Shown: positions 3,104 to 46,953, counted from the stretch's first letter. The stretch is DNA of 64,000 nt from a virus (IMGVR_UViG_3300000062_000001:1-64000), one strand, 5' to 3'. Notes: a model not told the origin generated them from the letters alone. Program-made: numbers and translations.

Positions 3104-3433
3104 TTAATCTTTTTTATCAGGTCCCATATAAAATTCTACAACAGTGTACTCTAATTCTTCAGCTCTATAAGGACAATTAGTTATTATATATCCTAATGCT
3201 GAACTATCACTTCTAAGACCAGGCACTACTATAGTACTTTCTTCTTCACTAATTATAGTGAAAAATTGTTTTGGTCTTATATATTCTGCTATAAGAGCAT
3301 ATTCATCTCTTTGAAAAGCATATTTTGATAATATACTATTATTTAATAATTGTGTAGGAAATCTTTCATTGCAAATAGGGGAATATTTCTCAACAAAATC
3401 TTGATTACTTATTTCATTCATTCCTGTTGTCAT
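3104..3433 (-). CDS. hypothetical protein
   Basis: 109-aa ORF whose ATG overlaps the TGA stop of the upstream gene (ATGA). Confidence 0.55.
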   Translation of the reverse strand: MTTGMNEISNQDFVEKYSPICNERFPTQLLNNSILSKYAFQRDEYALIAEYIRPKQFFTIISEEESTIVVPGLRSDSSALGYIITNCPYRAEELEYTVVEFYMGPDKKD

Positions 3434-3855
3434 TGCTTTGCTATATTTAAATATTGATTATAAATACCTTTTATTACATCATCTCCTACAGGTTTAGGTC
3501 TAATAGCATCTCTTAAAATACATGTTTCCAAAGTACAATGCATATATTTTATTTCAAACTTATGCCCAAGTTTTTCAGCAGTTTCTTTCCACTTATTAAT
3601 AGTAGTTTGAGAAAAATTGATACCATCAATGATTACAGAATATCCAACTTCTAATGCTATAATAGCATCTTCATATTCCATTTCTCTAATCATTTCTTCA
3701 TGATGATGGCTATAATTACCTATCATTTCTCTCAGGTCATCCCTATTAATTCTTACAAAGTCTTTATTATTTTTACAATACTCCTTAGCCCAAGTAGTTT
3801 TACCCGATGCTGGAAGTCCTTGCATTACTAAAATTTTCTGATTATTCCTGTCCAT
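3430..3855 (-). CDS. polynucleotide 5'-kinase-like P-loop kinase (T4 Pnk kinase-domain type)
   Basis: GLPASGKTTWAKEY Walker A followed by FVRINRDDLRE, the same layout as the T4 Pnk kinase domain (GSGKSTWA...INRDDYR). Ends with TGA. Confidence 0.7.
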   Translation of the reverse strand: MDRNNQKILVMQGLPASGKTTWAKEYCKNNKDFVRINRDDLREMIGNYSHHHEEMIREMEYEDAIIALEVGYSVIIDGINFSQTTINKWKETAEKLGHKFEIKYMHCTLETCILRDAIRPKPVGDDVIKGIYNQYLNIAKQ

Positions 3856-4426
3856 GTAGCCCCTTTATTCTTAACAAAGTAGGATCAATTCCTTTACCCA
3901 GTCCTTTGCTTATGTCTTCCAGAGACAACCACACTAACATTTTCTTAGGGATCTTTTTGAACTTCTTGTATAGTACAAAATCATGAGTTTTTACATCCTC
4001 TTTTTCCTGCAACTCTTTCCATTTACTTTTAGTTACAGTAATAATTCTATTTTTTACTGCAGCAATATAAACTCTTTCAGTAGTTTTACCTTCTTTAATT
4101 GTGCATTTAACAAGGTCTCCTATAGATAGTTCATCCCCCTTTTTTTCTGTGGGTTCTATAGATTTAACTACCTTGGGGTATTTTTTAAAGAATTCAGAAA
4201 AGAATCTTTTATTAATTATTATATTCCAAAAAGGAGTGCCCTCCCCATATTTATTTGTAGCCGACCATGTAAATCCTTTATTACTTTGTGAAGCATCAAT
4301 TTCATTTTGAAATATAGTTACATCTCTTGTATTACCCTGATCTACCTGGTGCCAAAGCATTCTTTCTGCTATTTCTATAGGGAATTCTTGTAGTCCTCCT
4401 ATTAAATCTTTTTCTGTTATATTCAT
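3842..4426 (-). CDS. hypothetical protein
   Basis: 194-aa uninterrupted ORF in the minus-strand gene train. Confidence 0.55.
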   Translation of the reverse strand: MNITEKDLIGGLQEFPIEIAERMLWHQVDQGNTRDVTIFQNEIDASQSNKGFTWSATNKYGEGTPFWNIIINKRFFSEFFKKYPKVVKSIEPTEKKGDELSIGDLVKCTIKEGKTTERVYIAAVKNRIITVTKSKWKELQEKEDVKTHDFVLYKKFKKIPKKMLVWLSLEDISKGLGKGIDPTLLRIKGLHGQE

Positions 4427-4574
4427 TTATTTTATATTAATATTTACATTTTCACATATCATCCAATGAATTTCACTAAGATTATAGTCGTGTGTTCTAA
4501 AGAACCAGTCTTCTATATCTTCATAATCTGTATTATTTTCTTCAGGAATTGTATAGATATCTATATTACCTGTG

Positions 4575-5333
4575 TTATAATTTAATATTATTATCTTCAT
4601 TCATTTTTTTTATTTTTCTTAGTGTTAATTTTTTGCCAAATAAGGTAGCATTTACTTCATAACCTAACTTATGTGCTACTTCTCTAAGTTTCTGTTCATT
4701 TGTAACTTCAGGTTTAGTAAGTTCTTCTTTTAATTTCTCATACTCTTTTAATAAATCTGATTTCAGTTTTAGATATTCAGTTTCAAGTTCAAGTTTATGT
4801 TCATTATAAGCTGTATGAAGATTTTCTTCAATACTGTTCTTATTAGCAATAATTCTTATATATTCATCATAAACACTTTTATATTTCTTTTCAAAATACT
4901 CCTTAACTTTTGATTCAACAGCCCCAAAATTTTCAACAGTTTCAATTTCTTCAGAACTTAATAATACTTTGGGGTAAAAACAACAATTAATATTTGAAGA
5001 CTCTTTTAAATAACTATGAAGATAGCTCTGTATAACACTAATAGAAACAGTCCTATTATGTCTATAGCATTCTGTTATAAACTTAATTATATCTGTAGCT
5101 GTACTACGTAATTTTTGGTCATCAAATACAATAGGTGAGAAGTTATTTATCTTTTGCTTTACTATTACAGGGCTTTTTTCACGTATTTGTGTATTAAGTT
5201 CATAAATAATATCATTCAATTTGTTTTCTATCTTCTTTTTTTCTGTCGCCATACTTTCCTGGCCTTCTTTAAGATTTTTTATAGTATCTCTCATAGAATC
5301 AAGTTCACTTAAACTCATTTTTACATCTGCCAT
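4575..5333 (-). CDS. hypothetical coiled-coil protein
   Basis: 252-aa ORF, rich in K/E heptad-like stretches. Confidence 0.55.
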   Translation of the reverse strand: MADVKMSLSELDSMRDTIKNLKEGQESMATEKKKIENKLNDIIYELNTQIREKSPVIVKQKINNFSPIVFDDQKLRSTATDIIKFITECYRHNRTVSISVIQSYLHSYLKESSNINCCFYPKVLLSSEEIETVENFGAVESKVKEYFEKKYKSVYDEYIRIIANKNSIEENLHTAYNEHKLELETEYLKLKSDLLKEYEKLKEELTKPEVTNEQKLREVAHKLGYEVNATLFGKKLTLRKIKKMNEDNNIKL

Positions 5334-5345
5334 AATATATGTTTT

Positions 5346-5930
5346 TTAAATATACTCTCTCTTAATAAATTCTTCCTGTAAAGGTATAGCTAATTCTCTA
5401 GCACTTGAATGAGCATTACTTGCACATCTTAATTTAAAGAAATGGTTCCAGTCACTACTATAACAAGTCATTACTAATTCTGTTTTAAGAGCATTAGATA
5501 ATACCTGTCTTGCTTGTTGAGGTTGCCAGCCTTTTTCAAGTAATTCAAAATAATATTTTTCAGAATCATAAAGAGAATCATAAAATGCTTTAGTTGCATT
5601 GTAAGGTTTTTGTAAATCCTCTCTTAATTGGGTTTCTGTTATCCATCCTGGTAAAATAAAAGTAATTTCATTACCAAATTTATCTTTATTGTATGAACAG
5701 TACCTCGTACTCTCTTGTGCAAAAGCATTACCTTTACTACCTCTATTCCTTACAAATTCGTGTGATATGTCTCTTGAAGTAATAAACAATACACTATGTC
5801 TTTTCTCATGATATTCAGTTGGTTCACACCAATATTGTAAATCATCTTCCCAACCATTTTCTATAATTTGTCTGTAATTCAAGATAAGATATACGAAATC
5901 TTCCTGAACATTTTCATTTCCTCTAATCAT
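5346..5930 (-). CDS. thyX: FAD-dependent thymidylate synthase ThyX, C-terminal fragment
   Basis: SVLFITSRDISHEFVRNRGSKGNAFAQESTRY matches the ThyX signature (RHR...S.RY). The ATG overlaps the stop of the HNH ORF. Confidence 0.7.
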   Translation of the reverse strand: MIRGNENVQEDFVYLILNYRQIIENGWEDDLQYWCEPTEYHEKRHSVLFITSRDISHEFVRNRGSKGNAFAQESTRYCSYNKDKFGNEITFILPGWITETQLREDLQKPYNATKAFYDSLYDSEKYYFELLEKGWQPQQARQVLSNALKTELVMTCYSSDWNHFFKLRCASNAHSSARELAIPLQEEFIKREYI

Positions 5931-6555
5931 ATTCTTCTGTTAATTTTTTAACAGTCCATTTACAAGTGGACAATCTATACCTTACAATGTTATAAGGTAT
6001 TTTCAAGTATTCTGAAAGTGTAGCTAATGTATAGTTTATACCTTCGTGTACAATGTAGTGATTCTTTCTTGTATTGTTATTTTGAATTGTTCTATTAACC
6101 CATCTACAATTTTCTGGACAATAATTACCATCATTATCTATCCTATCTATGGTTAATCCTTTACTATATGAATTAGTAATAGACCACAGATAAAATTCCT
6201 TGAAATCACTTAACCACTGATTACACATTAAAATACCTCTACCACCATAGTTAGAATAACTAATTTCATTTGGATTCAAACACCTCTTCTTCATGTTTTT
6301 CCATATAGAATATAAGGGGTGTTTTTCTAAACCATGTTTCAGTTGAGTTTCTTTAGCTCTTTGTCTTTGGTAACAACCACAAGATTGTGTTTTACCTAAT
6401 AATAAAAGTGATAGTTGAGTTTCAACAATATTACCACATTCACACATACAGGAAAACATTCTTCTTGGTTTATTACTACTTATAATCGGACTTATTTCTT
6501 TAATTATTTCTAATCTTCCAAATTTATCCCCTTTGTTAATTTCTTTTCTTTTCAT
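5923..6555 (-). CDS. HNH homing endonuclease inserted within thyX
   Basis: LTIDRIDNDGNYCPENCRWVNRTIQNNN HNH-type motif plus an N-terminal Cys cluster. Lies exactly between the two thyX fragments. Confidence 0.75.
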   Translation of the reverse strand: MKRKEINKGDKFGRLEIIKEISPIISSNKPRRMFSCMCECGNIVETQLSLLLLGKTQSCGCYQRQRAKETQLKHGLEKHPLYSIWKNMKKRCLNPNEISYSNYGGRGILMCNQWLSDFKEFYLWSITNSYSKGLTIDRIDNDGNYCPENCRWVNRTIQNNNTRKNHYIVHEGINYTLATLSEYLKIPYNIVRYRLSTCKWTVKKLTEEYD

Positions 6556-6609
6556 TGTTTCTAAATTTTAATTTCTACAAAGGTACAACAAATTATCGGA
6601 TTTTCCAAA

Positions 6610-6864
6610 TTAAATTGTTAATAATTTTTGTTTGAACTCTTTTTCATACACATCTCTTGGAACTTTCAAATAAACTGTACCATGTTCTAACATAGCACCA
6701 TGCTTATTATCTTTAAGCATTTCAATCATCTTAATATAACTATCATTAGTTATTTTATCCTCTGATTTGTAACATACTCTAGCTATTCTTTCAATATGTT
6801 TATACATACCTACTACTTCAGGTTCTTGAGTTAAAATTTCATATTTTGGTTTAATCAATTTCAT
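6610..6864 (-). CDS. thyX: ThyX, N-terminal fragment
   Basis: IARVCYKS...KHGAMLEH corresponds to the N-terminal ThyX helices (H.S.LEH region). The ORF stops after 84 aa. Confidence 0.65.
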   Translation of the reverse strand: MKLIKPKYEILTQEPEVVGMYKHIERIARVCYKSEDKITNDSYIKMIEMLKDNKHGAMLEHGTVYLKVPRDVYEKEFKQKLLTI

Positions 6865-6865
6865 T

Positions 6866-7132
6866 TTAATATTGTTTAAAATTTAACTCCTTATTACTAC
6901 TAAAAGGATGTACACACATCATTGTAAGTAATCTAGGAAGATTATGTATAATTTCTAAATCGTCTTTATCCCACCATGCATTTTTTTCATCTTCTTTTAC
7001 TTGATATATATATTCTATCGATGCCCTATAAACTGGTTCTTTTTCTGTTGATATATAAGAAGTAATTTCTGATACAATAGCAATACTACCATTGAGTGTT
7101 TTTACAAAATCTAAAGGTTTAATTAATTGCAT
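6866..7132 (-). CDS. hypothetical protein
   Basis: 88-aa ORF, 1 nt from the next gene. Confidence 0.5.
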   Translation of the reverse strand: MQLIKPLDFVKTLNGSIAIVSEITSYISTEKEPVYRASIEYIYQVKEDEKNAWWDKDDLEIIHNLPRLLTMMCVHPFSSNKELNFKQY

Positions 7133-7167
7133 ATTTTAAGTATTTTGCTTGTTTATATTTAATCATT

Positions 7168-7557
7168 TTATATATCAAAATCTAGTTCTCTTATTTCTAA
7201 TCTTCCTGATTTTATCAGTTCATCTCTTACATTCTCAAAAGCGTTTCTGTATTCCTGCATACGATATATACTATAGGAATCTATATTATGGGAATCTATA
7301 TTTGCTTTATTATAATTATCTTTTACAATATATTTTGCTAAATATTCTACTGAATTTCTAAAAGCTGCTGAAACATGATTCTTTTGTTTCCAAACTGCTC
7401 TCCCCTTTTCTGTAGTAAATCTTTTCCCATCTATAAATATAGAATAAGCCTTGTTGTTTTTATTACTATTATTAATACTAGAAAGGGAAAAAACTTTCTT
7501 TACAAAAGTATCTATATTATCAGAGGTCCATTCAAATTCAAAATTAGTTGTGTTCAT
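7168..7557 (-). CDS. hypothetical protein
   Basis: 129-aa ORF in the gene train. Confidence 0.5.
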   Translation of the reverse strand: MNTTNFEFEWTSDNIDTFVKKVFSLSSINNSNKNNKAYSIFIDGKRFTTEKGRAVWKQKNHVSAAFRNSVEYLAKYIVKDNYNKANIDSHNIDSYSIYRMQEYRNAFENVRDELIKSGRLEIRELDFDI

Positions 7558-7558
7558 T

Positions 7559-7948
7559 TTATAATATTTTTCTTAAATAATCATCATTCCAAGTGGACTC
7601 TTTAGTATGTCCATCAATCCAATCCCATGTTTGTTGTGCTTTTATAATATTACAGTCTGAATAATATATGGTCCATAATAACATTTCCCAATAAGTGTCA
7701 TCAGCATCTAACCAAAACATTATTTGCCATTTACCAAACAATGTTAAATTCCACTGGGGGGCAAATTCAAATCTTGGGGTGTTATATTTATCCTTCCACA
7801 TTATGTCCCTATAACATAAATGAATCCATTTTTTAGGTCTAAAAATAGGAAGTCCCATAGCACACCCACCAATATAAGACCTTAATTTAGGTCTTATAAA
7901 AAGTTTCCTTACTTTATTATAAGTTTTATATAATTTAATATTCATCAT
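7559..7948 (-). CDS. hypothetical protein
   Basis: 129-aa Trp-rich ORF in which all Trp are TGG. Confidence 0.5.
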   Translation of the reverse strand: MMNIKLYKTYNKVRKLFIRPKLRSYIGGCAMGLPIFRPKKWIHLCYRDIMWKDKYNTPRFEFAPQWNLTLFGKWQIMFWLDADDTYWEMLLWTIYYSDCNIIKAQQTWDWIDGHTKESTWNDDYLRKIL

Positions 7949-8198
7949 TCATATATTGCCAAAAAGATCCTTTTGTAATAGCTTCTCCTATGTTACTTTC
8001 AGTAAATAATTGTTCTTCATTTAATTCTTGTTCACTATCATCTATATTATTAATAATATAAAAAAGTTTTTCATTAGAATTATATGAAATTTCTTTGTTA
8101 CTTCTGAATCCCCCATTAAGTTCTATAAAACATTCTATAGAATTATCCATAGATATTTCTTTTAACATATCTACAGATGTAATTTTTTTATAATCCAT
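7935..8198 (-). CDS. hypothetical protein
   Basis: 87-aa acidic ORF. Confidence 0.5.
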   Translation of the reverse strand: MDYKKITSVDMLKEISMDNSIECFIELNGGFRSNKEISYNSNEKLFYIINNIDDSEQELNEEQLFTESNIGEAITKGSFWQYMNDEY

Positions 8199-8206
8199 AC
8201 TTTATA

Positions 8207-8875
8207 TTATATTTCTAAATAAAGTGGAGGATATGCTATATTGTAACTTTCATTAAGTATACTTACATTAGCTCCTATAGTATATCCATAATCTATTAAT
8301 TCATGGTCTCCTGAGTGTATATGACCACAAAATGTATATTTAGGTCTAACTTCTTCAATTCTGTTTGTTAATACAGGATTACCAACATTCTCTTTAGAAG
8401 CTATCTCAAGTATCTTCCCCATACCTCCTAAATAAGGAGCATCATGTGTTAATAGTATATCTAAATTCTCAGGAATTTCATTATACTTTGTTTTTAATTC
8501 ATCATTATTTCTCATGAACGCCCAATTTCCAAATTGTTTGCAATATGGGGTTCCAAAAATATGATATTCATTATTATTCCTTGCAGTATAAATTGTACTG
8601 TGATGATGTAGATATTCAACATGATTGGAGAATTTCATTTGACTTCTTACAAATGAATATTCGAGTATAAAATCATGATTTCCTGCTATAAATATAACAT
8701 GATTAATAGGTTGGTCTTCTATCCAAGACATAAAATCATTTTCTAACCATTCTATACCTTTGTTTATATTTGTTTGTATATTTAAAGGAAATATATCCCC
8801 ACAAATTAACATTAATTCTGCTTCTTCTACAGGTATGAATTTACCATGTAAATCACTAAGTACTGCTATTTTCAT
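8207..8875 (-). CDS. calcineurin-like metallophosphoesterase
   Basis: Ordered motifs DLHG, GDIFP, GNHD, HDAP and GHIH. Confidence 0.75.
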   Translation of the reverse strand: MKIAVLSDLHGKFIPVEEAELMLICGDIFPLNIQTNINKGIEWLENDFMSWIEDQPINHVIFIAGNHDFILEYSFVRSQMKFSNHVEYLHHHSTIYTARNNNEYHIFGTPYCKQFGNWAFMRNNDELKTKYNEIPENLDILLTHDAPYLGGMGKILEIASKENVGNPVLTNRIEEVRPKYTFCGHIHSGDHELIDYGYTIGANVSILNESYNIAYPPLYLEI

Positions 8876-9920
8876 TTATAATTTTTTCTTTTATCATTAT
8901 ATTTTTAATTTCTTGTATTAAATAAGATATATCTGAATTATTATTAATAATATAATCAGGAACAATTTGTTCTAATTCAGTTTCAGATTGATGATTAGAT
9001 TGATTTTCTTTTAAATACTTATTATACTCTAATTCCCAATCTTCTCTAAATCTTCTCTTCAAAACTTCAACACCATCTTCTATTTCATATAATTCTTCAG
9101 TAGGATTATCATTAATCAACATGTCATCAGCATATTTACAAGCTTCTTGAATAATATTTCTATCATATCTACTAATCTTAATAATCTTACCACCTCTATC
9201 TTTAATAGCTTTAGTTTCATTTAAAAATCTCACATCAGATATAAGCCATTTAGGATATGAATTACATATTTCACATGCATTATCTGAATCTATAGCACAG
9301 GCAACATCACCACAATCTCCTAATTTATAATCCTGCATTAACATATTAATATGGATGTCAAGATGTATTTTATCTCTAAATAAATCAGTTCCTATGTATT
9401 GAAGTAATTCTCTATAAGTAGGTAAGTAATAATATTTTTCTATTGGATAAAAATTAGCATCCTCCCAAACCATTTTAGTTGAATATTCATCTAAATCTGT
9501 TTTTGTTCTAAATATATTTGTATAAGTATTATATTTATCATTCCATATTAATTTCCAACATCCTAACCATTCAGGTACTTTACTATTTTTAAAATTTATA
9601 TCTTCAAATTGTTTCATTGTACAACCTGTTATAATACAAACTATTTGTTTAAGTTTAGTAGCAAATGCTTTTTGTTGCCATTGAGAATTATCTTTTATAT
9701 ATCCAACCCCATTAACACCCAATTCACAACATTCTGAATAAATATTGTAAAGAAATGAAGAGTCTTTTCTTTTTAAAGAATCTGATACAAATTGGATATC
9801 CCTCTTTTTATCTTTATGTGTAGAATAATATGAAGTATTATAGTAAATATCTAATAACTGCCATATTTTTACACAGGTGTCTTTTCCACTCTGTGCTTGT
9901 CCGACCATTCCGTAAATCAT
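8856..9920 (-). CDS. dNMP kinase-like protein (T4 gp1 type) with large insertions
   Basis: GQAQSGKDT P-loop, LLQYIGTDLFR and ISDVRFLNE...GGKIIKISR, arranged as in phage dNMP kinases. Confidence 0.55.
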   Translation of the reverse strand: MIYGMVGQAQSGKDTCVKIWQLLDIYYNTSYYSTHKDKKRDIQFVSDSLKRKDSSFLYNIYSECCELGVNGVGYIKDNSQWQQKAFATKLKQIVCIITGCTMKQFEDINFKNSKVPEWLGCWKLIWNDKYNTYTNIFRTKTDLDEYSTKMVWEDANFYPIEKYYYLPTYRELLQYIGTDLFRDKIHLDIHINMLMQDYKLGDCGDVACAIDSDNACEICNSYPKWLISDVRFLNETKAIKDRGGKIIKISRYDRNIIQEACKYADDMLINDNPTEELYEIEDGVEVLKRRFREDWELEYNKYLKENQSNHQSETELEQIVPDYIINNNSDISYLIQEIKNIMIKEKIINENSST

Positions 9921-9937
9921 ATTTTTAACTGTTTAAT

Positions 9938-10001
9938 AACTATGTAAAATAACCATATTAATACTTCATTAATAGTATAGATATGGTTATTTTACATAGT
10001 T
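9938..10001 (-). terminator. 21-bp perfect inverted repeat (strong hairpin) between two genes
   Basis: aactatgtaaaataaccatat (9938-9958) is the exact reverse complement of 9981-10001, with a 22-nt loop. Confidence 0.5.
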
Positions 10002-10008
10002 AATATTA

Positions 10009-10326
10009 TTATTTTGTTCCTGTTAATTTTTTATATTCTTCGTATTGTTCTAATTGTTCTGCATCTAGTTCTTCTTCTTTAGCAGGAAAAAATCTAAAGT
10101 ACACAAAACCTATTAAACTACATATAATAAAATATATAAAGAGTGCTAGAAATATCCAGTGTTCTTTAGGAAAATAAAATATTATGTGTAGTAAAAATAC
10201 TGTAAAAAACGGCCAAGTCATCATTCTGGCCATTCTTGGTAAGTATATATAGTATCCTGTAAAGGGTATTGGAACATTTCTGTTCAATGCAAAATTTCTA
10301 ACTAAAAATTGTCTTATTTTCTTCAT
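10009..10326 (-). CDS. membrane protein
   Basis: 105-aa ORF with two hydrophobic helices. Confidence 0.5.
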   Translation of the reverse strand: MKKIRQFLVRNFALNRNVPIPFTGYYIYLPRMARMMTWPFFTVFLLHIIFYFPKEHWIFLALFIYFIICSLIGFVYFRFFPAKEEELDAEQLEQYEEYKKLTGTK

Positions 10327-10554
10327 TTATAATAATTCTATATTTTCTATTTCAACTATAGTAAAATTAGGACCTATATTTCTAATAACTTCTCCTATAA
10401 TAGGTCCTTCTAATTTATCTTCTAGAAATTCTAAATCATTTTCTGTACAATTTGATATATCAAAAATAATTTCCCCTTTTACATCTAGTATTACTTGGCA
10501 TCTATATTCTTTAGTTACTAAATTTTCATTATAAGGTGCTTTTGATTCTATCAT
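10327..10554 (-). CDS. hypothetical protein
   Basis: 75-aa acidic ORF abutting its neighbours. Confidence 0.5.
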   Translation of the reverse strand: MIESKAPYNENLVTKEYRCQVILDVKGEIIFDISNCTENDLEFLEDKLEGPIIGEVIRNIGPNFTIVEIENIELL

Positions 10555-11222
10555 TATGACAAACTATTTCTATATTTAACAAAATCCATTGTTTTTAATT
10601 TAGTAATTAATCTTTCCCCATTTCTCATTAGTAGTCCTTGAGGAGTTTTAAGAACTAATCCTTCTGAATTGTTTGATAATTCTGAGATAACAGACTTAAA
10701 TCCTTTTTCAGTGAAAGCAATTGCTTCTGGAATGGTCATGTACCCCATTAATGGAACTACAGGAATTTGAAAATCTATAGCCACGTCTTCTACATTTCTT
10801 CTATCTAACCACCATTTTCCTACAGCTACATCAAAGAGTATAAACTCTATCTTATCTTTCTGTTGATAATAATAATTATTGCTAAACTGTATTTTAAAAC
10901 CATGCCCTTCCCCAAATAAAATTGTACTTGGACAATCAGCACCAAAATGAGTTTTAAATTTTTCTACAGTAAAAGTATTAACTAAATATGTTAACAAATG
11001 CTTTGGAATAATGGCTTGGTTTGTTCTTCCTTTAAACTCAACAGCCTCATTATTTTTATCATAAATGATTCTAATATTAGTACCATCTATTTTCTCTGTA
11101 CATTCCCATTCATTTTTATTTAGATATTTAAACTCTTCTGTGGTATATTTTGAAGGTATTATAATACCTTTATCATCCCTCATAAAAAGAGTTTGTATCT
11201 TGGGGTACTTTTCTATGTTCAT
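10554..11222 (-). CDS. ATP-dependent RNA ligase-like nucleotidyltransferase
   Basis: Motif I EKIDGTN, motif III ILFGEGHG, FILFDV, motif IV EGLVLK and motif V ITKLK, in canonical order. Confidence 0.65.
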   Translation of the reverse strand: MNIEKYPKIQTLFMRDDKGIIIPSKYTTEEFKYLNKNEWECTEKIDGTNIRIIYDKNNEAVEFKGRTNQAIIPKHLLTYLVNTFTVEKFKTHFGADCPSTILFGEGHGFKIQFSNNYYYQQKDKIEFILFDVAVGKWWLDRRNVEDVAIDFQIPVVPLMGYMTIPEAIAFTEKGFKSVISELSNNSEGLVLKTPQGLLMRNGERLITKLKTMDFVKYRNSLS

Positions 11223-11519
11223 TTACTTAATATTTAAATTTTCATTTATATATTTCACACCATACCTTCCACAACATAACTCAGGGCTTGATATGTGCCC
11301 TCTAACATGTTTAGCTGGTCTTGACCAACAAGCTGGCATATAGATATTACCTTCAAAATCTAAGAAAGCATATACTACTCTTTGACCATTACTATAATGT
11401 CGAATAATTTTAATATACTTTTTGCCTATACTAAATGTATATGATACTTTAAAAGGGACTTCATAAAAATTATCTGTTAACCAACTTATAAATTGATTTA
11501 TTTCTGTTTCTGTTATCAT
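11223..11519 (-). CDS. hypothetical protein
   Basis: 98-aa ORF. Confidence 0.5.
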   Translation of the reverse strand: MITETEINQFISWLTDNFYEVPFKVSYTFSIGKKYIKIIRHYSNGQRVVYAFLDFEGNIYMPACWSRPAKHVRGHISSPELCCGRYGVKYINENLNIK

Positions 11520-11528
11520 AATAAATAT

Positions 11529-14174: not shown

Positions 14175-14359
14175 TCGCTACCTATTTATTTGTTGAGAAA
14201 ATCCTATAGCTTTATAATCTGAAGGAGTTTCTTCTATAACAGATTGATAGTGCCTTAAAAGTATTCCAAATAGATAATACTTCTTTTCTTCTATACAAAA
14301 CCTATTTTTTTCTACCTCAAAATCTCTCGTTGTTATTACTTTCCACATTTATTTGTAAT

Positions 14360-34971: not shown

Positions 34972-34980
34972 GTTGTTGTG

Positions 34981-36070: not shown

Positions 36071-36098
36071 GGGATATAATACAGTGTACTATATCCCC
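36071..36098 (-). terminator. hairpin directly after the stop of 36105..36383
   Basis: gggatata (36071-36078) pairs with tatatccc (36090-36097). Confidence 0.4.
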
Positions 36099-36104
36099 AT
36101 TATT

Positions 36105-37242: not shown

Positions 37243-37257
37243 TGTAATTAATATTTA

Positions 37258-37899
37258 TTAAAAGTTATTATAAAACCATTCTTCAAAATGCTCTCCTTTA
37301 GTTTTAAGCACAGCTTTTTCTTGAAATAAAGCAGTTCCAAAGCCATTAATATAAGCACTTTTTAACTCATCTTTACTAAAACTATCTTTAATAGCTTTAA
37401 TAGTGATTTCATTGTTTTTATCAACTTTAATTTTGTTAATTTTAAATTGTTTGAAATTGCCGCATTCATTTCTATTGCTACAATTACAAGTTGTATCACT
37501 ACAAATTTCTTCAAACTCAATCATTACTTCATCAATACCACCTTGCTCACAATACTTTTTAACAAATGATTGTGATGGTGTTGGTAAATTTAATGCTTGG
37601 TTTGTTAATGCCACAACCTTTTTACAATAACCATTTTTGTAATTTTCAATGCATCTATCTAAATCGTCTATAGTTACCTCGAAAATACATTTATCATAAT
37701 GAAATAATGTGAGATCTTCAAGAATAATATCTCCTACTTTTATTTCTTCATCAGTAATGAAGCAAAGATGCTGTGATATATCTGGTTCAGTCCTTATTAT
37801 ATTAAATCCAATTTGTAATTTACCATTTGAATCAATATAAATTGTACTTCTCCCTTTAGTAGGTAGACTAACTACTTCTGCACTTTTAAATGTATTCAT
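37258..37899 (-). CDS. hypothetical protein
   Basis: 213-aa ORF. Confidence 0.5.
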   Translation of the reverse strand: MNTFKSAEVVSLPTKGRSTIYIDSNGKLQIGFNIIRTEPDISQHLCFITDEEIKVGDIILEDLTLFHYDKCIFEVTIDDLDRCIENYKNGYCKKVVALTNQALNLPTPSQSFVKKYCEQGGIDEVMIEFEEICSDTTCNCSNRNECGNFKQFKINKIKVDKNNEITIKAIKDSFSKDELKSAYINGFGTALFQEKAVLKTKGEHFEEWFYNNF

Positions 37900-37929
37900 C
37901 TGAATTTTATTTTTAAGATTAATACTTAT

Positions 37930-38127
37930 TTATAATTTAATTCCACACAAAGGACAATAATTTATACATGCTAAAACTTCATCATTTATTGAACTATCGC
38001 AAAAAAATGCGTCATAATTTAATATTAAATCTTTGTTTTTCATATATAATGTTATTCTACAACGGTCTTTAGATTCATCAACAGGTATATCATTAATAGC
38101 TGAATATCCTTCACAAAATTTACACAT
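37930..38127 (-). CDS. small zinc-ribbon protein
   Basis: CKFC...CPLC pairs at both ends of a 65-aa ORF. Confidence 0.5.
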   Translation of the reverse strand: MCKFCEGYSAINDIPVDESKDRCRITLYMKNKDLILNYDAFFCDSSINDEVLACINYCPLCGIKL

Positions 38128-38148
38128 ATCTTTAATATTTAATGTTAA

Positions 38149-38385
38149 TTATAATAAACGGCGTAACCTATGCCTTATGGCATTTTCACTCTTAATATTT
38201 GTCATCAAATAATTTTCAAATGCTATACTCAATTCAGCATTTACAACTTTATTATTGATGTCATTATTACTACAATATTCATCAACTTTAGCAATGAATC
38301 TTCCATCATTCCATATATTAACTTCTATAAATATAGAAACAATATCTTCGATGTTTTGTTCTGTTAATTTTACTGATGTATCCAA
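38149..38385 (-). CDS. hypothetical protein
   Basis: 78-aa ORF. Confidence 0.45.
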   Translation of the reverse strand: MDTSVKLTEQNIEDIVSIFIEVNIWNDGRFIAKVDEYCSNNDINNKVVNAELSIAFENYLMTNIKSENAIRHRLRRLL

Positions 38386-38396
38386 TACATTTAGTT

Positions 38397-38786
38397 TTAA
38401 TTTAATGATTTTATTATAATAATATCCTCTTCTATAGATTCATCATATACTGGACTAGTATTCATAATATCAAATAGTAAAAAAGTTGGAAATATTCCTT
38501 TACCTCTATTTTTGTAATTGTCCTTATAAGAAGCTTTGAGAATATTCTCAATTTTATCCCAGGATTTAGGATTAATAAATATTTGAGATACAGATAGCAT
38601 AATGTTGTTATTAAAAGTCTCTGCTAGATTTTTAAAATCAATATCTAAACATTTGTATACATCAGCCATACATTTCACACCCCTCTTTGTGTATCCCCTT
38701 TTAATATGAAATAAGTTATGAGTTCTCTTACTAATAGGGTAATTAATTAGTTTATCATAGTCAATACTATATAATAATTCTTTCAT
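38397..38786 (-). CDS. hypothetical protein
   Basis: 129-aa ORF. Confidence 0.5.
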   Translation of the reverse strand: MKELLYSIDYDKLINYPISKRTHNLFHIKRGYTKRGVKCMADVYKCLDIDFKNLAETFNNNIMLSVSQIFINPKSWDKIENILKASYKDNYKNRGKGIFPTFLLFDIMNTSPVYDESIEEDIIIIKSLN

Positions 38787-38800
38787 GATATATATTTATT

Positions 38801-38983
38801 TTAATGAAGTATATTAATACCAATTAACATATATATTCCTAATATTACAGGAATAATCAATATACTAGCAATTATTATTATTTTATATAATGATTCTTGT
38901 TTCTTAGACCAACTTGTTTTTAATCTTGCTACAAAGTAACAAAATAATAAAGTTAATATACAAAAAAATAAATAGGTTTTCAT
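38801..38983 (-). CDS. small two-helix membrane protein
   Basis: 60-aa ORF with two hydrophobic segments. Confidence 0.4.
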   Translation of the reverse strand: MKTYLFFCILTLLFCYFVARLKTSWSKKQESLYKIIIIASILIIPVILGIYMLIGINILH

Positions 38984-39952
38984 AATTTTAATTATTAATA
39001 ATGAATATTTTTAATTTTAATTTAATAAATAAAACTATTATCACATCTTCTGTGGTATGCAGTGGATGTAAATCCTCTGTTATCATATTCATCTTGTATT
39101 CTCAAGACTATAATAGTTTTAATATTGTATTTTACAGCAAAAACTATAAATGAGTCAATTTATATAATGTTATTATTTATATAAAATGACTCTATATTAT
39201 TTTCATTTAGAAGTCTTGCATCTTCTCCTTATCATATCTAATAAGTCTAATGTAAATTACTAATAATATATTTTAGATATAGAACCATGTTTTCCCCAAG
39301 AACTAGGGAAGTTATTTAAGTTTTTATTTGTAGAGCTCTCGCTTTAAAGAAGCTCTCTATAATAACCTTGTTAAGATAATGCACCAGTCATTATACCAGT
39401 CTTTCCATTTCTTAACTCATAACGATTTTCTCATTATGAAACTTATATTGACAATTGTATTATTTGATAAAATAATACCTTACAAAGATAAGTAAGATTT
39501 CAACTTTTATTTTAAGTGGTTTAAGTCAAACAATAGCCTACTTTGACTCAACAAGTTGGTTCTTTCAAATCTATTGTTTAATCATCAGATTATTTTCCAC
39601 TAAAAAGACCTATAAGCAGTTCAGAAATTTAATTTATGGGATGCTTATAGATACATTTATTTTAGAGGTTGGCGATGGTGTTATAATTCAACCAGAACTC
39701 CTGTTACAGTATCTCCTGTAATCCACCAACCTTGTATTTTATTCATCATACAAAACTATCTTGTACGATATAGTTAAATCTTATTAATTAGCTAAATTAA
39801 CAATACTTATTCAATACCTTTCTCAAGGGTATTTACTTTTTACATAAAGTTGGATAGTTCAACTAATCATTTTCTTTACCATCATTAACAGGAGCCTGAA
39901 TAACCTATTAACTAGGACTTGTTTTTTAGGTAATGAGAATTCACAAGTAACC

Positions 39953-40306
39953 TTATTCTACATATTTTCCACACGGGAGACCATCATCAAATTGATAGTC
40001 TTCCATTAATTGTTTATAATTTATAAAAGCAAGATCTGTTAAAATTCCATGCTTGTCGTAAGAAGTTATTTGATAATAATCATCTTGTTTGTTTGTTATC
40101 CACCTATCTCTAAATGATGAAGCATCATCTATTGTAAAGGGAACAAGTTTTCTTTCTGGTTTTAATCTGTAATTTTTAGGGGATGCTTCGAAATTTAAGT
40201 TGTGGCAATCGTACCAAACTCCAGTATTATCTCTATATTGTACCCTTTTACCTCCTGCAAAAGCAATAATAATTGGTAATAGTGCAAGAGCACGTTTTGG
40301 TGTCAT
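39953..40306 (-). CDS. hypothetical protein
   Basis: 117-aa ORF. Confidence 0.5.
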   Translation of the reverse strand: MTPKRALALLPIIIAFAGGKRVQYRDNTGVWYDCHNLNFEASPKNYRLKPERKLVPFTIDDASSFRDRWITNKQDDYYQITSYDKHGILTDLAFINYKQLMEDYQFDDGLPCGKYVE

Positions 40307-40317
40307 AATAATTATAT

Positions 40318-40503
40318 TTAATTAGTTAATAATTTAAGTACTATACAAATTAATATTATAACTGCTAAAGATATAATATTAAATTTAAATGATTCTTCAT
40401 CCTTTGTTACATTAACAGTCAATTGTGGTTTGAATATTTGAAGAGTAGTATAACAAAGTAAGAAGATAAAAGTAACTCCTAATATTATAAATTTAGTTTC
40501 CAT
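40318..40503 (-). CDS. small membrane protein
   Basis: 61-aa ORF with two hydrophobic helices. Confidence 0.4.
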   Translation of the reverse strand: METKFIILGVTFIFLLCYTTLQIFKPQLTVNVTKDEESFKFNIISLAVIILICIVLKLLTN

Positions 40504-40510
40504 AATAATA

Positions 40511-40687
40511 TTAATTAAACGGTAGTATAAAATAACTTTTATATCCAGCTTTAGGATTAAGTTTTTGCTTAGTTCTAAATAGTTCTGAAGCCTTATTTAA
40601 AGCTTTAGAATGAGTATCAGTTAATATCTGATTGATAGGATGAATTTTATTCTTGTCATCTCTAAAATATACATTATATTCTTTCAT
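40511..40687 (-). CDS. small hypothetical protein (below the track cutoff)
   Basis: Hand-translated 58-aa ORF, MKEYNVYFRDDKNKIHPINQ...YFILPFN, which fills the gap in the gene train. Confidence 0.35.
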   Translation of the reverse strand: MKEYNVYFRDDKNKIHPINQILTDTHSKALNKASELFRTKQKLNPKAGYKSYFILPFN

Positions 40688-40726
40688 TTTATGAGTGTTT
40701 TATTAACAATTAAAATTAAGATTAAA

Positions 40727-40766
40727 ATATACCCAAGAGTATATATAAGTATAAACTTGGGTATAT
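40727..40766 (-). terminator. 11-bp perfect hairpin followed by a U-rich tract
   Basis: atatacccaag (40727-40737) pairs with cttgggtatat (40756-40766), immediately after the stop of 40779..41135. Confidence 0.55.
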
Positions 40767-40778
40767 AATTAATTAAGA

Positions 40779-41135
40779 CTAACCTTCAAATACATTTTCA
40801 TTCCCTGCACCATTAGGGGCTGTGAAGAAAGCGCCTGTTTTTGCATTTTGGATTACTGGAGTATCCAGATTAGGCCTTTGACCTACCACTGCGGTTTCAT
40901 CTTTTGCTGATGACATGATTGACATTGGTATGTACTGACCACTTTTATTCTTGCCCTCAAAGTAGCATATTTTTCTACCTTCAGTGCTTTTAGAAGCCCT
41001 CCAATTTGAGAATTTAATTGCTTCATAGCCTTTGAGTACATCTCTCATTGTACCTGAGCCAGCTATATTGCTCATTGCATCTGGGTTAGACGATGTGACT
41101 GCTGCACCTTTTGATCCTAAATCGAAATTAAACAT
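40779..41135 (-). CDS. hypothetical Gly/Ala/Ser-rich protein, apparently its own transcription unit
   Basis: 118-aa ORF bracketed by a tRNA upstream and a strong hairpin downstream. Confidence 0.55.
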   Translation of the reverse strand: MFNFDLGSKGAAVTSSNPDAMSNIAGSGTMRDVLKGYEAIKFSNWRASKSTEGRKICYFEGKNKSGQYIPMSIMSSAKDETAVVGQRPNLDTPVIQNAKTGAFFTAPNGAGNENVFEG

Positions 41136-41193
41136 GATAAATAAAAATTAAATTGTTAATAAAATGATTCAATAATGTAGTAACTACTACATC

Positions 41194-41265
41194 GTAGCGG
41201 AGGTTAGAATCGAACTAACTACTTCAAGATTATGAGACTTGATTTCTACCATTGAATTACTCCGC
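41194..41265 (-). tRNA. tRNA with anticodon CAU (Met, or Ile2 if lysidine-modified)
   Basis: Hand-folded cloverleaf. T-arm GUUAG-UUCGAUU-CUAAC, anticodon loop CUCAUAA, D-loop with GG, six acceptor pairs plus a U:U at 1:72. Confidence 0.7.
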
Positions 41266-41472
41266 ATTATTAAAAAGGAACTAACATACTTAAGTAATGT
41301 TGCTCTTCTACCAAAAAATGAAATTTTTATGCTAGTTCCTTAATGTGTGTAAATTCAAAGGAGAGTTAAATCACATTCCTCCTCTTCATTTATATCATCT
41401 TCGTAATGACGATTTACCAATGCTGTTTCTCTAAAATAACTATCCATTGATAGAATTCTTTCGATAGTTTTT

Positions 41473-41754
41473 CTAGACATAATTTGCAGGTTTAGTATTA
41501 CTGTAAATAAATCTCATATTGTTCTCTTTAGCAAACTTTATTTCTGCTTTGGAGATAGGAAAAGTTATTAATTCCATCAAGCTTTTCTCTTGTATTAAAT
41601 CTCTTTTAGGATGATTTAATCTGAAGAACTTTCTATCCTGTTTCTTATGCAGGATATCACTCTTAATAGAGTCAGTTATTATTATTGAATTTCCTCTTTT
41701 GATTTGCCTTCTTGTACTTTGCATAGTTACTGAATTTAGTGCGTTTAACATCAA
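41473..41754 (-). CDS. hypothetical protein
   Basis: 93-aa ORF. Confidence 0.45.
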   Translation of the reverse strand: MMLNALNSVTMQSTRRQIKRGNSIIITDSIKSDILHKKQDRKFFRLNHPKRDLIQEKSLMELITFPISKAEIKFAKENNMRFIYSNTKPANYV

Positions 41755-41986
41755 ATATATCTAAAGCTAATGAAACTATAAAGCCCATAGCTAATAAGCA
41801 TGTAATTGCTGTTAGAATATCTAAGAATATCATTTTGTGGGCTTATTTAAGTTTTTAAGAAACCATTTCTGTATTGCATTAACAGAATACCATAGAACAA
41901 ATCCAAATGTTATTCCTATAAGAACAGACGCAAGTATAAAAAATATTGTTGCAATAGTAATCATAATTGTTTAAGTTATTAAAGAA

Positions 41987-42025
41987 ATATACCTACTATC
42001 ATTGTTTATAAAATAGTAGGTATAT
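41987..42025 (-). terminator. 12-bp perfect hairpin
   Basis: atatacctacta (41987-41998) pairs with tagtaggtatat (42014-42025), after the stop of 42046..42525. Confidence 0.5.
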
Positions 42026-42045
42026 TAATTAAGTTTTACATAAAT

Positions 42046-42525
42046 TCATTTGTAATATTGTATCTTAATATTAGTACCTTTGATACTGATATTATTTACA
42101 GTTAATTCTCCTGATTCTACAATTACTTGAACAATGTTTGTATTTTTAGATACATTAACCATTGTTTTAGTAGTGAGATCAATTTGATGAGCTTCTGGCA
42201 TGGTATTTTCATCCCAGCGTGGGCTGTTTTTTCTACCTGGTGCAATAGCAGTAGTCATACTATGATTGACAAATAACATTGATTTGTACTTGGTTATAAA
42301 TATTTTATTGTTATAGTAAACCATTTCTATACTTGCTGCACTTCTGGTTATTCCAGTTTGTTCCTGAATTTTAGCTGCTGCTATTTCAAAAGCATATCTT
42401 AAATTATTAGGACACCTTTTGATGGTCTCTGCTAATATTTCAAATTCGGCTGTAGAGTATTGTGGACCTCTTTTAGGTCTTTTTTCCTCTCGTTCCTGGG
42501 AGTAATCAAAATTAATTGTTTCCAT
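42046..42525 (-). CDS. hypothetical protein
   Basis: 159-aa ORF ending in TGA. Confidence 0.5.
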   Translation of the reverse strand: METINFDYSQEREEKRPKRGPQYSTAEFEILAETIKRCPNNLRYAFEIAAAKIQEQTGITRSAASIEMVYYNNKIFITKYKSMLFVNHSMTTAIAPGRKNSPRWDENTMPEAHQIDLTTKTMVNVSKNTNIVQVIVESGELTVNNISIKGTNIKIQYYK

Positions 42526-43006
42526 TGTATAAATATTTTAGTGTGTTAGTATGTGTGTATTTATTAGTATTCTCCTGGAGTATAATTCTTACGAATATAT
42601 TTCCATACAAATATTCCTATGATTATCCACAAGAATAAGGTGTAACCAAACTCATCATTTAGTTGTATTGATTGTAATGTTGTCATGTTGTGTAATGTTA
42701 ATGTTAATATACAAATTCAATGTTCATCCAATGAGGAATATATTCATTAGGATAAGTCCTAAAGAACCCTCTTAGAGCATGTTCAAGAGATAATCCTGAT
42801 ATTGTCAAAACTCTCTTTCTATTAGTAGTAATCCTGTATCTTTTAATCATGATGTATAAATATTTGATGTGTAATTGATAATTATGTAGGAATTAATCTT
42901 TGAATTTGATACTAATTAATAGTTAATAATAGTAATAATAGTGTATTGAATATATTTTAAGACTGTCCACATGTCTGATGATTGACACATGGACAGCTAT
43001 TCTGGT

Positions 43007-43363
43007 TTACTTTACGAGCTTTTTGAAGTCTGAGAAGCTGATGGATGGGGAGGAAGTGTAGAGGATATAATACACCTCATTATCTTCATCTTGCATCTCT
43101 TTAACAAACAATTCTGATGCAGACCAGACTTCATCTTCATCCAATAAATCAGCACCTTTCTCAATTGATTCACTGAGACTTTCACTGGTTATCATATATA
43201 CAGGCTCTTCATTAGCTATAAAACTAATATACCACCTGTCCCCAGTAGCACATTTTTTAAATCTGGTCTTGACCTCATCACAGGTCATTGATTCCATGAA
43301 AGCAACTAGGTTTAGGTCTTTACTCTTAGGAGCAGCTTGATTGTTATTCGGTAAATTTTTCAT
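43007..43363 (-). CDS. acidic hypothetical protein, first gene of the minus-strand block
   Basis: 118-aa ORF next to the divergent intergenic region. Confidence 0.5.
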   Translation of the reverse strand: MKNLPNNNQAAPKSKDLNLVAFMESMTCDEVKTRFKKCATGDRWYISFIANEEPVYMITSESLSESIEKGADLLDEDEVWSASELFVKEMQDEDNEVYYILYTSSPSISFSDFKKLVK

Positions 43364-45304: not shown

Positions 45305-45375
45305 GGGTTTGTGTTGTAAGAGTAGCAAATTAGTCTTCAAAACTAAGAGTCAGGGAGCGTAGCCTTGCAAACCCG
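45305..45375 (+). tRNA. opal suppressor tRNA, anticodon UCA (reads UGA; Trp identity inferred)
   Basis: 71-nt cloverleaf. Acceptor GGGUUUG/CAAACCC, D-stem UUGU/GCAA, anticodon stem UUAGU/ACUAA, loop CU-UCA-AA (anticodon 45337-45339), 4-nt variable loop, T-stem CAGGG/CCUUG, discriminator G. The T-loop AGCGUAG is non-canonical. Confidence 0.75.
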
Positions 45376-45400
45376 CAGTAATTAATTAATAATTAATAAG

Positions 45401-46000: not shown

Positions 46001-46253
46001 TGCAGTTAAAGGAGGATACAACTTTAAGGCTATAAAGTTAAGATGTGGTAATCCTTCAGGAAAAGTTATAGCAGAAATTATTAAGGAAGTAGATCCTTAT
46101 ATGTATAGTATATTAAATGATACAGTTGCTCTTAAAAGGTATAGGGATAAATTATATGAGAAGTATTTAGAATCAGAATATAATATATCCACATATAAAA
46201 GTGAAACTACAGGATTAACCTATCGTGTTAAGAAAGACCCAATTTATGATTAA
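45966..46253 (+). CDS. hypothetical protein
   Basis: 95-aa ORF. Confidence 0.5.
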   Translation: MDIQLQRERIVNAVKGGYNFKAIKLRCGNPSGKVIAEIIKEVDPYMYSILNDTVALKRYRDKLYEKYLESEYNISTYKSETTGLTYRVKKDPIYD

Positions 46254-46255
46254 AA

Positions 46256-46585
46256 GTGGTAATGAAGGAGTATAAAATAAACTGGTATAAAGTAAGACAT
46301 ATAAACAATGAATATGGTTGTTATATCTTAGCTGAAGGAGTAAGGGACGCTAAAAGAAGATTTAAAGACAATGAATTGAACAATTTTCCTACAATAAGTG
46401 GATTAAAATATGATAGAATAGAGGAATATTGGAATAAGGAATATTTAGCAGCTTTTAATGAGTATTATAAAGAAGATAATATACTAGTAACAATTTGGGA
46501 TGAATTAACTCTTGAAGATGAAAGAAGGGCTATAAATATGTGGAAACAAGAACTTAGGTATAGATATATAAAAGAAAGAGAATAG
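46256..46585 (+). CDS. hypothetical protein
   Basis: 109-aa ORF. The likely ATG is at 46262. Confidence 0.5.
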   Translation: MVMKEYKINWYKVRHINNEYGCYILAEGVRDAKRRFKDNELNNFPTISGLKYDRIEEYWNKEYLAAFNEYYKEDNILVTIWDELTLEDERRAINMWKQELRYRYIKERE

Positions 46586-46587
46586 TT

Positions 46588-46869
46588 ATGAAGGAAAGAA
46601 TTTATGTTGTATGGCATATTAATAATGGAAAACATTACAATAAAACTTATAAAGAAGCTGAATGGAATGGTTGTGCTTACTGAGTTACAGCTTCTAATAG
46701 GGGAATAGCTAAAGATAGAGCAATACAACATTTCTTTATAGATAACTGTCCATTAGATTATATCAATACTTTTTCTAATATGACCGTGGAGGAATTTTTT
46801 GATAAGAAAAATTTAAAAGTGTCTTATATAAAAAAATATGATTATTTAAATTATGGATTAGATATTTAA
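46588..46869 (+). CDS. hypothetical protein, first gene containing an in-frame TGA
   Basis: ATG 46588, TGA 46681-46683 in frame, TAA 46867-46869. Reads ...EAEWNGCAY-W-VTASNRGIAKDR... Confidence 0.5.
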
Positions 46870-46881
46870 AAAAGTTGATAA

Positions 46882-46953
46882 GGTTGTTTAGTATAACGGA
46901 TAATATATTTCTCTTCTAAAGAAATGATGGTGGTTCGATTCCATCAACAACTA
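46882..46953 (+). tRNA. tRNA-Arg (anticodon UCU)
   Basis: 72-nt cloverleaf. Acceptor GGUUGUU/AACAACU, anticodon stem UUUCU/AGAAA, loop CU-UCU-AA, T-arm GGUGG-UUCGAUU-CCAUC. Confidence 0.8.

Follow-up and report, generated by a model that had tools for sequence, protein, structure and literature searches.

The virus record IMGVR_UViG_3300000062_000001 raises the question whether several translation-related elements within one stretch of its genome work as a single kit for taking over translation, or whether they are separate elements. The window analysed here comprises bases 1-64000 of this record (64,000 nucleotides), which constitute the left 60% of a genome of 106,389 bases that is rated complete and carries 81-bp direct terminal repeats. 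Within it lie an opal suppressor tRNA with the anticodon UCA, two further tRNAs with the anticodons UCU and CAU, a transfer-messenger RNA (tmRNA), and genes for a 5'-kinase, a metallophosphoesterase and an RNA ligase. An earlier reading of the sequence, hereafter the original prediction, had proposed that these elements together install a late genetic code, buffer its side effects on ribosome recycling and protect the tRNA pool by RNA repair. We find that the phage is crAss-like (Crassvirales) and writes its genes in two genetic codes, and we hold with moderate confidence that the suppressor tRNA acts as the switch between the codes while the other elements are separate add-ons. The original prediction is in this sense partly supported: all the elements that it listed exist, but they do not appear to act as one kit.

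Two genetic codes in a crAss-like phage

The large terminase subunit (TerL) of the phage is 45-50% identical to those of cr108_1, cr116_1, IAS virus and Bacteroides crAss-like isolates, and TerL and the portal protein give full-length matches to phrog_6681 and phrog_6547, respectively, only if TGA is translated as sense. A search of metagenome contigs with TerL returned as new relatives only the source contig of the genome that we call G001 and a 3-kb fragment. The GC content is approximately 27-35% along the window and 30% over the whole genome, and we infer that the host is most likely a member of the Bacteroidota.

Open reading frames (ORFs) were called with TAA and TAG as the sole stop codons, and the resulting gene map falls into two blocks on opposite strands, Table 1. 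The minus-strand block holds the genes for DNA polymerase A, ribonucleotide reductase, rIIA/rIIB-like proteins, a primase, a Sak4-like annealing protein, helicases, a dNMP kinase and ThyX, and contains no in-frame TGA at all; 4 of the 54 early ORFs end in TGA, each of them with a TAA or TAG one to six codons further on. Beyond about 43.4 kb on the plus strand, the genes for TerL, the portal and structural proteins emerge only when TGA is read through. Most ORFs of this block contain TGA, the first at position 46681, with about 120-150 in-frame occurrences overall and the highest load (23) in a late protein of 1389 amino acids (aa), while the stops are exclusively TAA or TAG.

Two lines of evidence bear on the meaning of the reassigned codon. 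At the positions in TerL and portal where TGA occurs, the residue found most commonly in homologues is Trp, followed by stops (in recoded relatives) and then by Tyr and Phe. Furthermore, the frequency of Trp per 1000 codons is evened out between the blocks if TGA is counted, at 13.3 for the early genes (148 TGG, 0 TGA) vs 13.6 for the late genes (88 TGG and 121 TGA). Since both observations point the same way, TGA is predicted to specify tryptophan, and to do so in the late genes only. Neither a release factor nor a tryptophanyl-tRNA synthetase (TrpRS) was found in the phage genome. A host that natively uses code 4 was also considered and was set aside as unlikely; the early genes write Trp as TGG only. 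The proposal that the phage installs a late genetic code is thus well supported, both by the restriction of TGA=Trp to the late genes and by the tRNA(UCA) that heads the late strand and whose presence tracks recoding across relatives.

A non-canonical opal suppressor tRNA heads the late strand

In its stems and anticodon loop, the tRNA(UCA) is a canonical cloverleaf, with acceptor and anticodon stems of 7 and 5 bp, both perfect, a D stem of 4 bp, the anticodon loop CUUCAAA and the discriminator G73, although no CCA is encoded. The elbow is different: the T-loop reads AGCGUAG and the D-loop AAGAGUA, and neither the conserved UUCRANY of the T-loop nor the GG of the D-loop is present. Because of this unusual elbow, default tRNA finders miss the gene. 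ARAGORN at default settings calls only two tRNAs in the whole genome and not this one, and the Rfam tRNA model RF00005 gives no match to it even at E<=10. At lowered ARAGORN thresholds of 95% or 90% (-ps95/-ps90), the 106-kb genome yields a single extra call, the tRNA(UCA). Single-sequence folding does not discriminate here, since the score of a genuine tRNA from this genome is no better (z-score -0.9, vs -1.3 for the tRNA(UCA)).

A homologue of this tRNA exists in the closest relative, G001 (locus L001), a 105.8-kb contig with a TerL that is 62% identical and with late genes that are also TGA-recoded. Its sole tRNA is a tRNA(UCA) of the same non-canonical type (L001:4604-4676; 20129-20201(-) in G001), which lies 5.3 kb upstream of TerL, compared with 5.2 kb here. 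The two copies have the anticodon arm, the T arm and the odd T-loop (AGCRUAG) in common, whereas their flanks have diverged. All 21 of 21 pairs hold in both copies (42/42 cells paired), with compensatory two-sided changes at 7:66 (G-C/A-U), 10:25 (U-A/G-U) and 12:23 (G-C/A-U) and one-sided changes at two further pairs; in slid controls, 32-52% of cells were paired and no double changes appeared. In both copies the T-loop can be read as A54 G55 C56 ... U58 and the D-loop as A18 G19, on which basis A18:G55 and A54:U58 may take the place of the usual contacts G18:psi55 and T54:A58.

We then related the presence of a tRNA(UCA) to recoding in 30 related IMG/VR loci, which were divided according to whether TerL is interrupted by TGA. 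Among the loci with an interrupted TerL and at least 3.5 kb of upstream sequence, a tRNA(UCA) was present in 6 of 6 (L001, L002, L003, L011, L016 and this phage), always on the same strand and 3-5.4 kb upstream. It was present nowhere among the loci with an uninterrupted TerL, 9 of which have comparable upstream sequence (0/9). All six suppressors carry G73, and the four canonical ones carry A1-U72, a pair that is also found in bacterial tRNA-Trp. Beyond these, three pattern scans of IMG/VR for further copies of the odd tRNA returned G001 only, the other four matches being chance ones without a cloverleaf, and a blastn search against 50,697 phage records gave nothing meaningful. The predicted opal suppressor can therefore be regarded as real, given its homologue in the closest relative, although it is a non-canonical molecule of a kind that default finders pass over.

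Directly downstream of the suppressor gene lies an ORF (45401-46000, plus strand) with HTH and HNH endonuclease domains, which may be a homing endonuclease beside a tRNA gene.

A solitary tmRNA of the Bacteroidota type

The early block contains a one-piece tmRNA, which matches RF00023 with 57.3 bits against a cut-off of 47 (E 8e-20) over model positions 1-374, that is, over the full length, although ARAGORN at default settings does not call it. The acceptor stem GGGGGUG/CACCUCC contains the G3:U70 pair that confers alanine identity and is followed by A73; the T-arm is canonical, with the loop GUUCGAAUC, and the conserved AUAAACAUGUA block is present. The tag ORF (35545-35604, with the resume codon GGC at 35604) encodes GKVINLTPSTQTAYRLAA, a tag of 18 residues with an LAA-type end, and its frame is free of UGA and terminates in UAG UAG. 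With a full-length family match and an intact tag frame, the tmRNA of the original prediction is confirmed as present.

The tmRNAs that we fetched from Bacteroidota likewise start with GGGGGUG and resume at GGC, and the context upstream of the resume codon is almost identical, reading AAACUAUAAAU-GGCAA in a Sphingobacteriales metagenome-assembled genome (MAG) and AAACUAUAAAA-GGCAA in the phage. Their tags are of the type GENNYALAA or GNTQFAMAA, and their lengths of 369-397 nt are close to the 368-371 nt of the phage molecule. Judged by the start, the resume context and the length, which are all that the alignment shows in common, the phage tmRNA is a complete molecule of the Bacteroidota type. 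Its GC content is nevertheless 31%, vs 44-50% in the Bacteroidota, and the sequence identity is only 45-51%. Because G3:U70, the T-arm, the resume context and the LAA end have been kept while GC drifted this far, the molecule appears to have resided in the phage lineage for a long time under selection rather than to have been captured recently.

Outside this genome, we found no close counterpart of the tmRNA in what was searched. It is missing from five related viral genomes, including two recoded ones; blastn against the 50,697 phage records returned nothing similar; and an exact 24-nt search through bacterial genomes found no match, while a looser scan recovered 120 bacterial tmRNAs from many phyla, none of them similar beyond the tRNA-like domain. 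Nor did we find a report of a tmRNA in a crAss-like phage in the literature. Since the phage genome has no match to the SmpB family PF01668 at E<=1, the host would have to supply SmpB; Pth2 was not found in the phage either. The tmRNA and the suppressor lie 9.6 kb apart on opposite strands. The possibility that the tmRNA is an attP remnant was ruled out, as the molecule has its full length and an intact tag, and the adjoining ORFs that were scanned, including one of 333 aa, match no family. In one bacterial tmRNA (L093, from a Bacteroidales MAG), the frame of the GENNYALAA tag stops at UGA and would be read through under an active opal suppressor.

Kinase, phosphoesterase and RNA ligase genes

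The three genes on which the proposal of RNA repair was built exist, and their motifs are intact. The kinase retains the P-loop GLPASGKT and the motif INRDDLR, in which the catalytic Asp and Arg are kept; its best match in the Protein Data Bank (PDB) is T4 Pnk (1ly1, E 1.3e-10), and it also matches phrog_8238, a family of kinase-ligase fusions. At 141 aa, it is not fused to a 3'-phosphatase domain, and the adjoining ORFs are without a family match. The nearest solved structure to the phosphoesterase is MPPED2 (E 4.9e-16), and no other PDB entry matches it at E<=0.01, Pnkp and lambda phosphatase included; it might be assigned to RNA healing.

The ligase shows motifs I, III, IV and V (KIDG for motif I, FGEG, FILFD, EGLVLK and KLK), which are invariant in an alignment of 27 sequences, and PF09414 is the sole family that it matches. 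Its structural model (pLDDT 88) finds its best fold matches in T4 Rnl2 (2hvr and 1s68, E 1.5e-10), followed by archaeal Rnl3 and REL1, with T4 Rnl1 ranking only 41-46 at E of about 1e-5. With 222 aa vs 319-334, it is without the C-terminal domain of T4 Rnl2, and the model consists of the nucleotidyltransferase (NTase) domain only, as in 1s68.

The three genes do not form a set. They are spread over 7.8 kb, interspersed with pieces of thyX, an HNH endonuclease, a dNMP kinase and small ORFs, and their phyletic patterns differ. Among three related genomes (G001, G002 and G003), only G001 has a homologue of the kinase and none has one of the ligase, whereas homologues of the phosphoesterase are found in the standard-code G003 and in cr55_1, cr1_1, cr50_1 and cr108_1. 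Homologues of the ligase in cr116_1 and in IAS virus share 48% identity with it, and its gene closely follows the polymerase I genes (PolA) both here and in cr116_1, the TerL of which reads uninterrupted; overall, more than 1300 ligase homologues were found, many on contigs of about 100 kb. Ligase and phosphoesterase are therefore recurrent in crAss-like phages, and because the distributions of the three genes differ, the trio is not a co-inherited unit. Nucleic-acid end processing within the replication module would be at least as likely a role for these enzymes as RNA repair. The idea that RNA repair protects the tRNA pool as part of a common kit is not supported: the genes are scattered and separately inherited, the ligase is Rnl2-like and not Rnl1-like, and the phosphoesterase is widespread in crAss-like phages and nearest to MPPED2.

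Ordinary tRNAs and other features of the window

The remaining two tRNAs, with the anticodons UCU and CAU, are each called by ARAGORN and by Rfam, as had been proposed. AGA is the dominant Arg codon (72-75% of Arg codons) and AUA accounts for 54% of Ile codons. The tRNA(CAU) has an elongator-type 11:24 pair, a U1/U72 mismatch and an anticodon stem without a G-C run, and may be either tRNA-Ile2, which reads AUA after lysidine modification, or an elongator tRNA-Met. The tRNA-Arg(UCU) fits codon supplementation, and so does the tRNA(CAU), for AUA, if it is tRNA-Ile2. An ORF listed at 46924-47295 (+) starts inside the 3' end of tRNA-Arg(UCU); the in-frame ATG at 46969 is a likelier start.

Table 1 Coordinates of the features discussed, in positions of the window
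Feature	Position	Strand	Basis or remark
Two ORFs, left genome end	10-657, 685-1926	+	need 3 and 5 in-frame TGA read through
Early/replication block	1927..43363	-	standard code
T4-Pnk-like 5'-kinase domain, stand-alone	3430..3855	-	141 aa; AAA_33 5.5e-17; phrog_505 1e-32
Calcineurin-like metallophosphoesterase	8207..8875	-	222 aa; PF00149 2.9e-10; all metal-binding motifs
Rnl2-like RNA ligase, nucleotidyltransferase domain only	10554..11222	-	222 aa; PF09414 5.7e-19
One-piece tmRNA	35321..35688 (Rfam match 35318-35688)	-	RF00023
tRNA(CAU)	41194..41266	-	ARAGORN and Rfam
Non-canonical opal suppressor tRNA(UCA)	45305..45376	+	ARAGORN at lowered threshold; homologue in G001
Late (structural) block	46588..64000 in window, to ~96160 in genome	+	predicted TGA=Trp
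tRNA-Arg(UCU)	46882..46954	+	ARAGORN and Rfam
TerL	50528-52861	+	11 in-frame TGA
Portal	52942-55338	+	9 in-frame TGA

The two plus-strand ORFs at the left genome end match no family and stand apart from the main late block. Three ORFs for HNH or LAGLIDADG endonucleases (15151-15915, 28341-29249 and 5923-6555, all on the minus strand) lie beside or between pieces of the genes for ribonucleotide reductase, the DnaB-like helicase and ThyX, and are probably intron or homing-endonuclease insertions. About 1 kb of the early block (38983-39953) is without an ORF of at least 60 aa on the coding strand; a weak RAGATH-34-like match at 39490-39614(-) reaches 27.5 bits against a cut-off of 60.7 (E 1.3). 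A scan of the sequence for promoters and terminators performed no better than on shuffles.

Discussion

The account that we favour is one of two codes with a single switch. The early and replication genes would be translated in the standard code, with TGA nearly avoided, and the structural genes would use TGA for tryptophan. The switch would be the phage tRNA(UCA) that heads the rightward block: once it is made and charged, the late mRNAs would become translatable. The tRNA-Arg(UCU) would supplement AGA, which the AT-rich phage overuses, and the tRNA(CAU), provided that it is tRNA-Ile2, would serve AUA in the same way. Together with SmpB from the host, the tmRNA would most likely free ribosomes stalled at the 3' ends of mRNAs in the infected cell, with a rescue load that could arise either from opal read-through or from general mRNA decay; that this load is coupled specifically to the suppressor we consider possible, although we lean against it. 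The Pnk-like kinase, the phosphoesterase and the Rnl2-like ligase would belong to a module of nucleic-acid metabolism, and not to a tRNA-repair set linked to recoding.

Several points weigh against this account. The covariation statistics for the suppressor are weak, since there are only two sequences of the odd tRNA, and 51 of 500 shuffles equalled the observed values. The acceptor begins with G1-C72 here, vs the A1-U72 of the relatives' canonical suppressors, and that the host TrpRS loads Trp onto the tRNA(UCA) is a step that we infer. RNA repair by the kinase and ligase is possible. In addition, the tmRNA, the suppressor and the two ordinary tRNAs all lie within 12 kb round the early/late switch, which could reflect a common purpose, and a link between suppressor read-through and trans-translation has been published (PMC3985003).

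The alternative that survives best takes up this last point and couples the suppressor to the tmRNA alone, proposing that the phage has kept its tmRNA because opal suppression drives ribosomes past the UGA stops of host genes to the ends of mRNAs, and that a UGA-free tag frame with a tandem UAG keeps rescue and tagging working during UGA read-through. Such a link is mechanistically plausible, because suppressor read-through is a published source of substrates for trans-translation: SsrA tagging of read-through products caused by suppressor tRNAs has been described in Escherichia coli (Ueda et al. 2002, as cited in PMC3985003). The features kept in the tmRNA despite its drift to 31% GC (G3:U70, T-arm, resume context and LAA end) speak for selection. 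The tag does end in UAG UAG, and some bacterial tags stop at UGA (6/108 sampled), one Bacteroidales MAG among them. UAA or UAG terminates the tag in the other 102 of the 108, however, as it does in 15 of 16 tmRNAs with G-start tags, so that a UGA-free tag is the norm, most tmRNAs already ending in this way. Moreover, the tmRNA is in neither recoded relative nor in three others, and in a sample of IMG/VR loci with a tmRNA 3' motif, which is biased in consisting mostly of prophage ends at host ssrA genes, a suppressor was present in 0 of the 9 tRNA-holding loci, a result that speaks at most weakly against the pairing. We therefore regard this coupling as unlikely. We are similarly doubtful that the tmRNA and the altered-elbow suppressor constitute a two-RNA module of code change plus clean-up; if they did, it would be a module not described for recoded phages, and the altered elbow may serve to distinguish the suppressor from host tRNAs.

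Still less probable is an integrated toolkit, in which suppressor, tmRNA, tRNAs and repair genes are co-adapted and jointly take over translation by installing the code, clearing ribosomes stalled after read-through and mending nuclease-cut tRNAs. Every part is present with its motifs intact, the RNA genes are grouped within 12 kb of the strand switch, and T4 Pnk-type kinases and RNA ligases do mend tRNA in T4. The ligase here is Rnl2-like, however, and not of the Rnl1 type that repairs tRNA in T4, and the repair genes are surrounded by replication genes at a distance of 24-32 kb from the tmRNA. That the tag ORF is UGA-free and ends UAG-UAG, and that suppressor tRNAs are a known source of tmRNA substrates (PMC3985003), would suit the toolkit as well. 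Against this, many contigs of about 100 kb carry the ligase, and both ligase and phosphoesterase occur in crAss-like phages with an uninterrupted TerL. No relative has the set in common, as the recoded G001 holds only the suppressor and the kinase, the recoded G002 the suppressor and three tRNAs, and the standard-code G003 the phosphoesterase. The co-occurrence that the original prediction singled out is thus a combination found in no related genome, and it does not demonstrably exceed chance; we consider the toolkit improbable.

Least credible, to the point that we judge it very improbable, is that the tRNA(UCA) is a chance cloverleaf and that the phage relies on a host suppressor or on a TGA=Trp host: its T- and D-loops are without the conserved elbow sequence, it has no Rfam match at E<=10 and its fold z-score is only -1.3, but a genuine tRNA of the genome folds no better (z -0.9), it is the sole additional ARAGORN call in 106 kb, its homologue in G001 is conserved with compensatory pairs amid diverging flanks, its position equals that of the relatives' canonical suppressors, and a TGA=Trp host would not require the avoidance seen in the early genes (148 TGG, 0 TGA).

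Comparison with known systems

In T4, Pnkp and Rnl1 repair tRNA against the anticodon nuclease PrrC. As in that system, an ATP-dependent RNA ligase is present here, and the kinase is a close motif match to the kinase domain of T4 Pnk; unlike in T4, the kinase is not fused to a 3'-phosphatase, T4 Rnl1 is only a distant fold match to the Rnl2-like ligase, and the genes are dispersed. In the bacterial Pnkp/Hen1 repair system, exemplified by Clostridium thermocellum Pnkp, kinase, metallophosphoesterase and ligase domains reside in a single protein. The same three enzyme classes occur in the phage genome, but as three separate, non-adjacent genes with different phyletic patterns and with a phosphoesterase that is nearest to MPPED2; a Hen1 was not seen in the phage, in which no search was aimed at it. 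It would accordingly be a mistake to take the RNA-repair-type genes for components of a recoding kit.

Phage tmRNAs are known from the mycobacteriophage Bxz1 group and from Bacillus phage G (PMC4131195; PMC12484599). Like these, the tmRNA described here is an ssrA-like gene of full length in the genome of a lytic phage that has no smpB, but it differs from them in residing in a UGA-recoding Crassvirales genome of 106 kb, in being of the Bacteroidota type with GGC as resume codon, and in its tag of 18 residues. The work on SsrA and suppressors in E. coli (cited in PMC3985003) supplies the logic for a possible link between suppressor and tmRNA, with the difference that the tmRNA there is the host's own, in a laboratory strain.

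Recoding of stop codons in late genes with the help of phage suppressor tRNAs is known in crAss-like and other gut phages (PMC7886860; 10.1101/2021.08.26.457843), including the zeta crAss-like phage Lera (PMC12386605), so that the installation of a late code in this phage is an already known mechanism. Like the known recoded crAss-like phages, it would use TGA for Trp in structural genes only and keep its replication genes in the standard code, and it has in common with them the avoidance of TGA as a stop, a phage tRNA(UCA) and an AT-rich genome. Unlike some recoded phages, it has no 'code change module' of RF1 or TrpRS, and its suppressor, unlike those of known recoded phages, has a non-canonical elbow and escapes default finders. 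It is, in short, a recoded crAss-like phage of a known kind, in which the hidden suppressor with its rebuilt elbow and the solitary Bacteroidota-type tmRNA are what is unusual.

A tmRNA is mentioned in neither of the two surveys of recoded phages (PMC7886860; 10.1101/2021.08.26.457843), and its presence in a recoded crAss-like phage makes it testable whether the reassignment of a stop codon in the course of infection creates a problem of ribosome rescue that phages must solve. Both surveys report many recoded genomes without a detected suppressor, a share that amounts to about two thirds of TGA-recoded phages according to Borges et al. (10.1101/2021.08.26.457843), and both propose divergent or non-canonical tRNAs as an explanation. 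This phage and G001 together constitute a concrete, comparatively supported case of such a hidden divergent suppressor, and the hidden tRNA(UCA) thus argues for relaxed, synteny-guided searches upstream of TerL.

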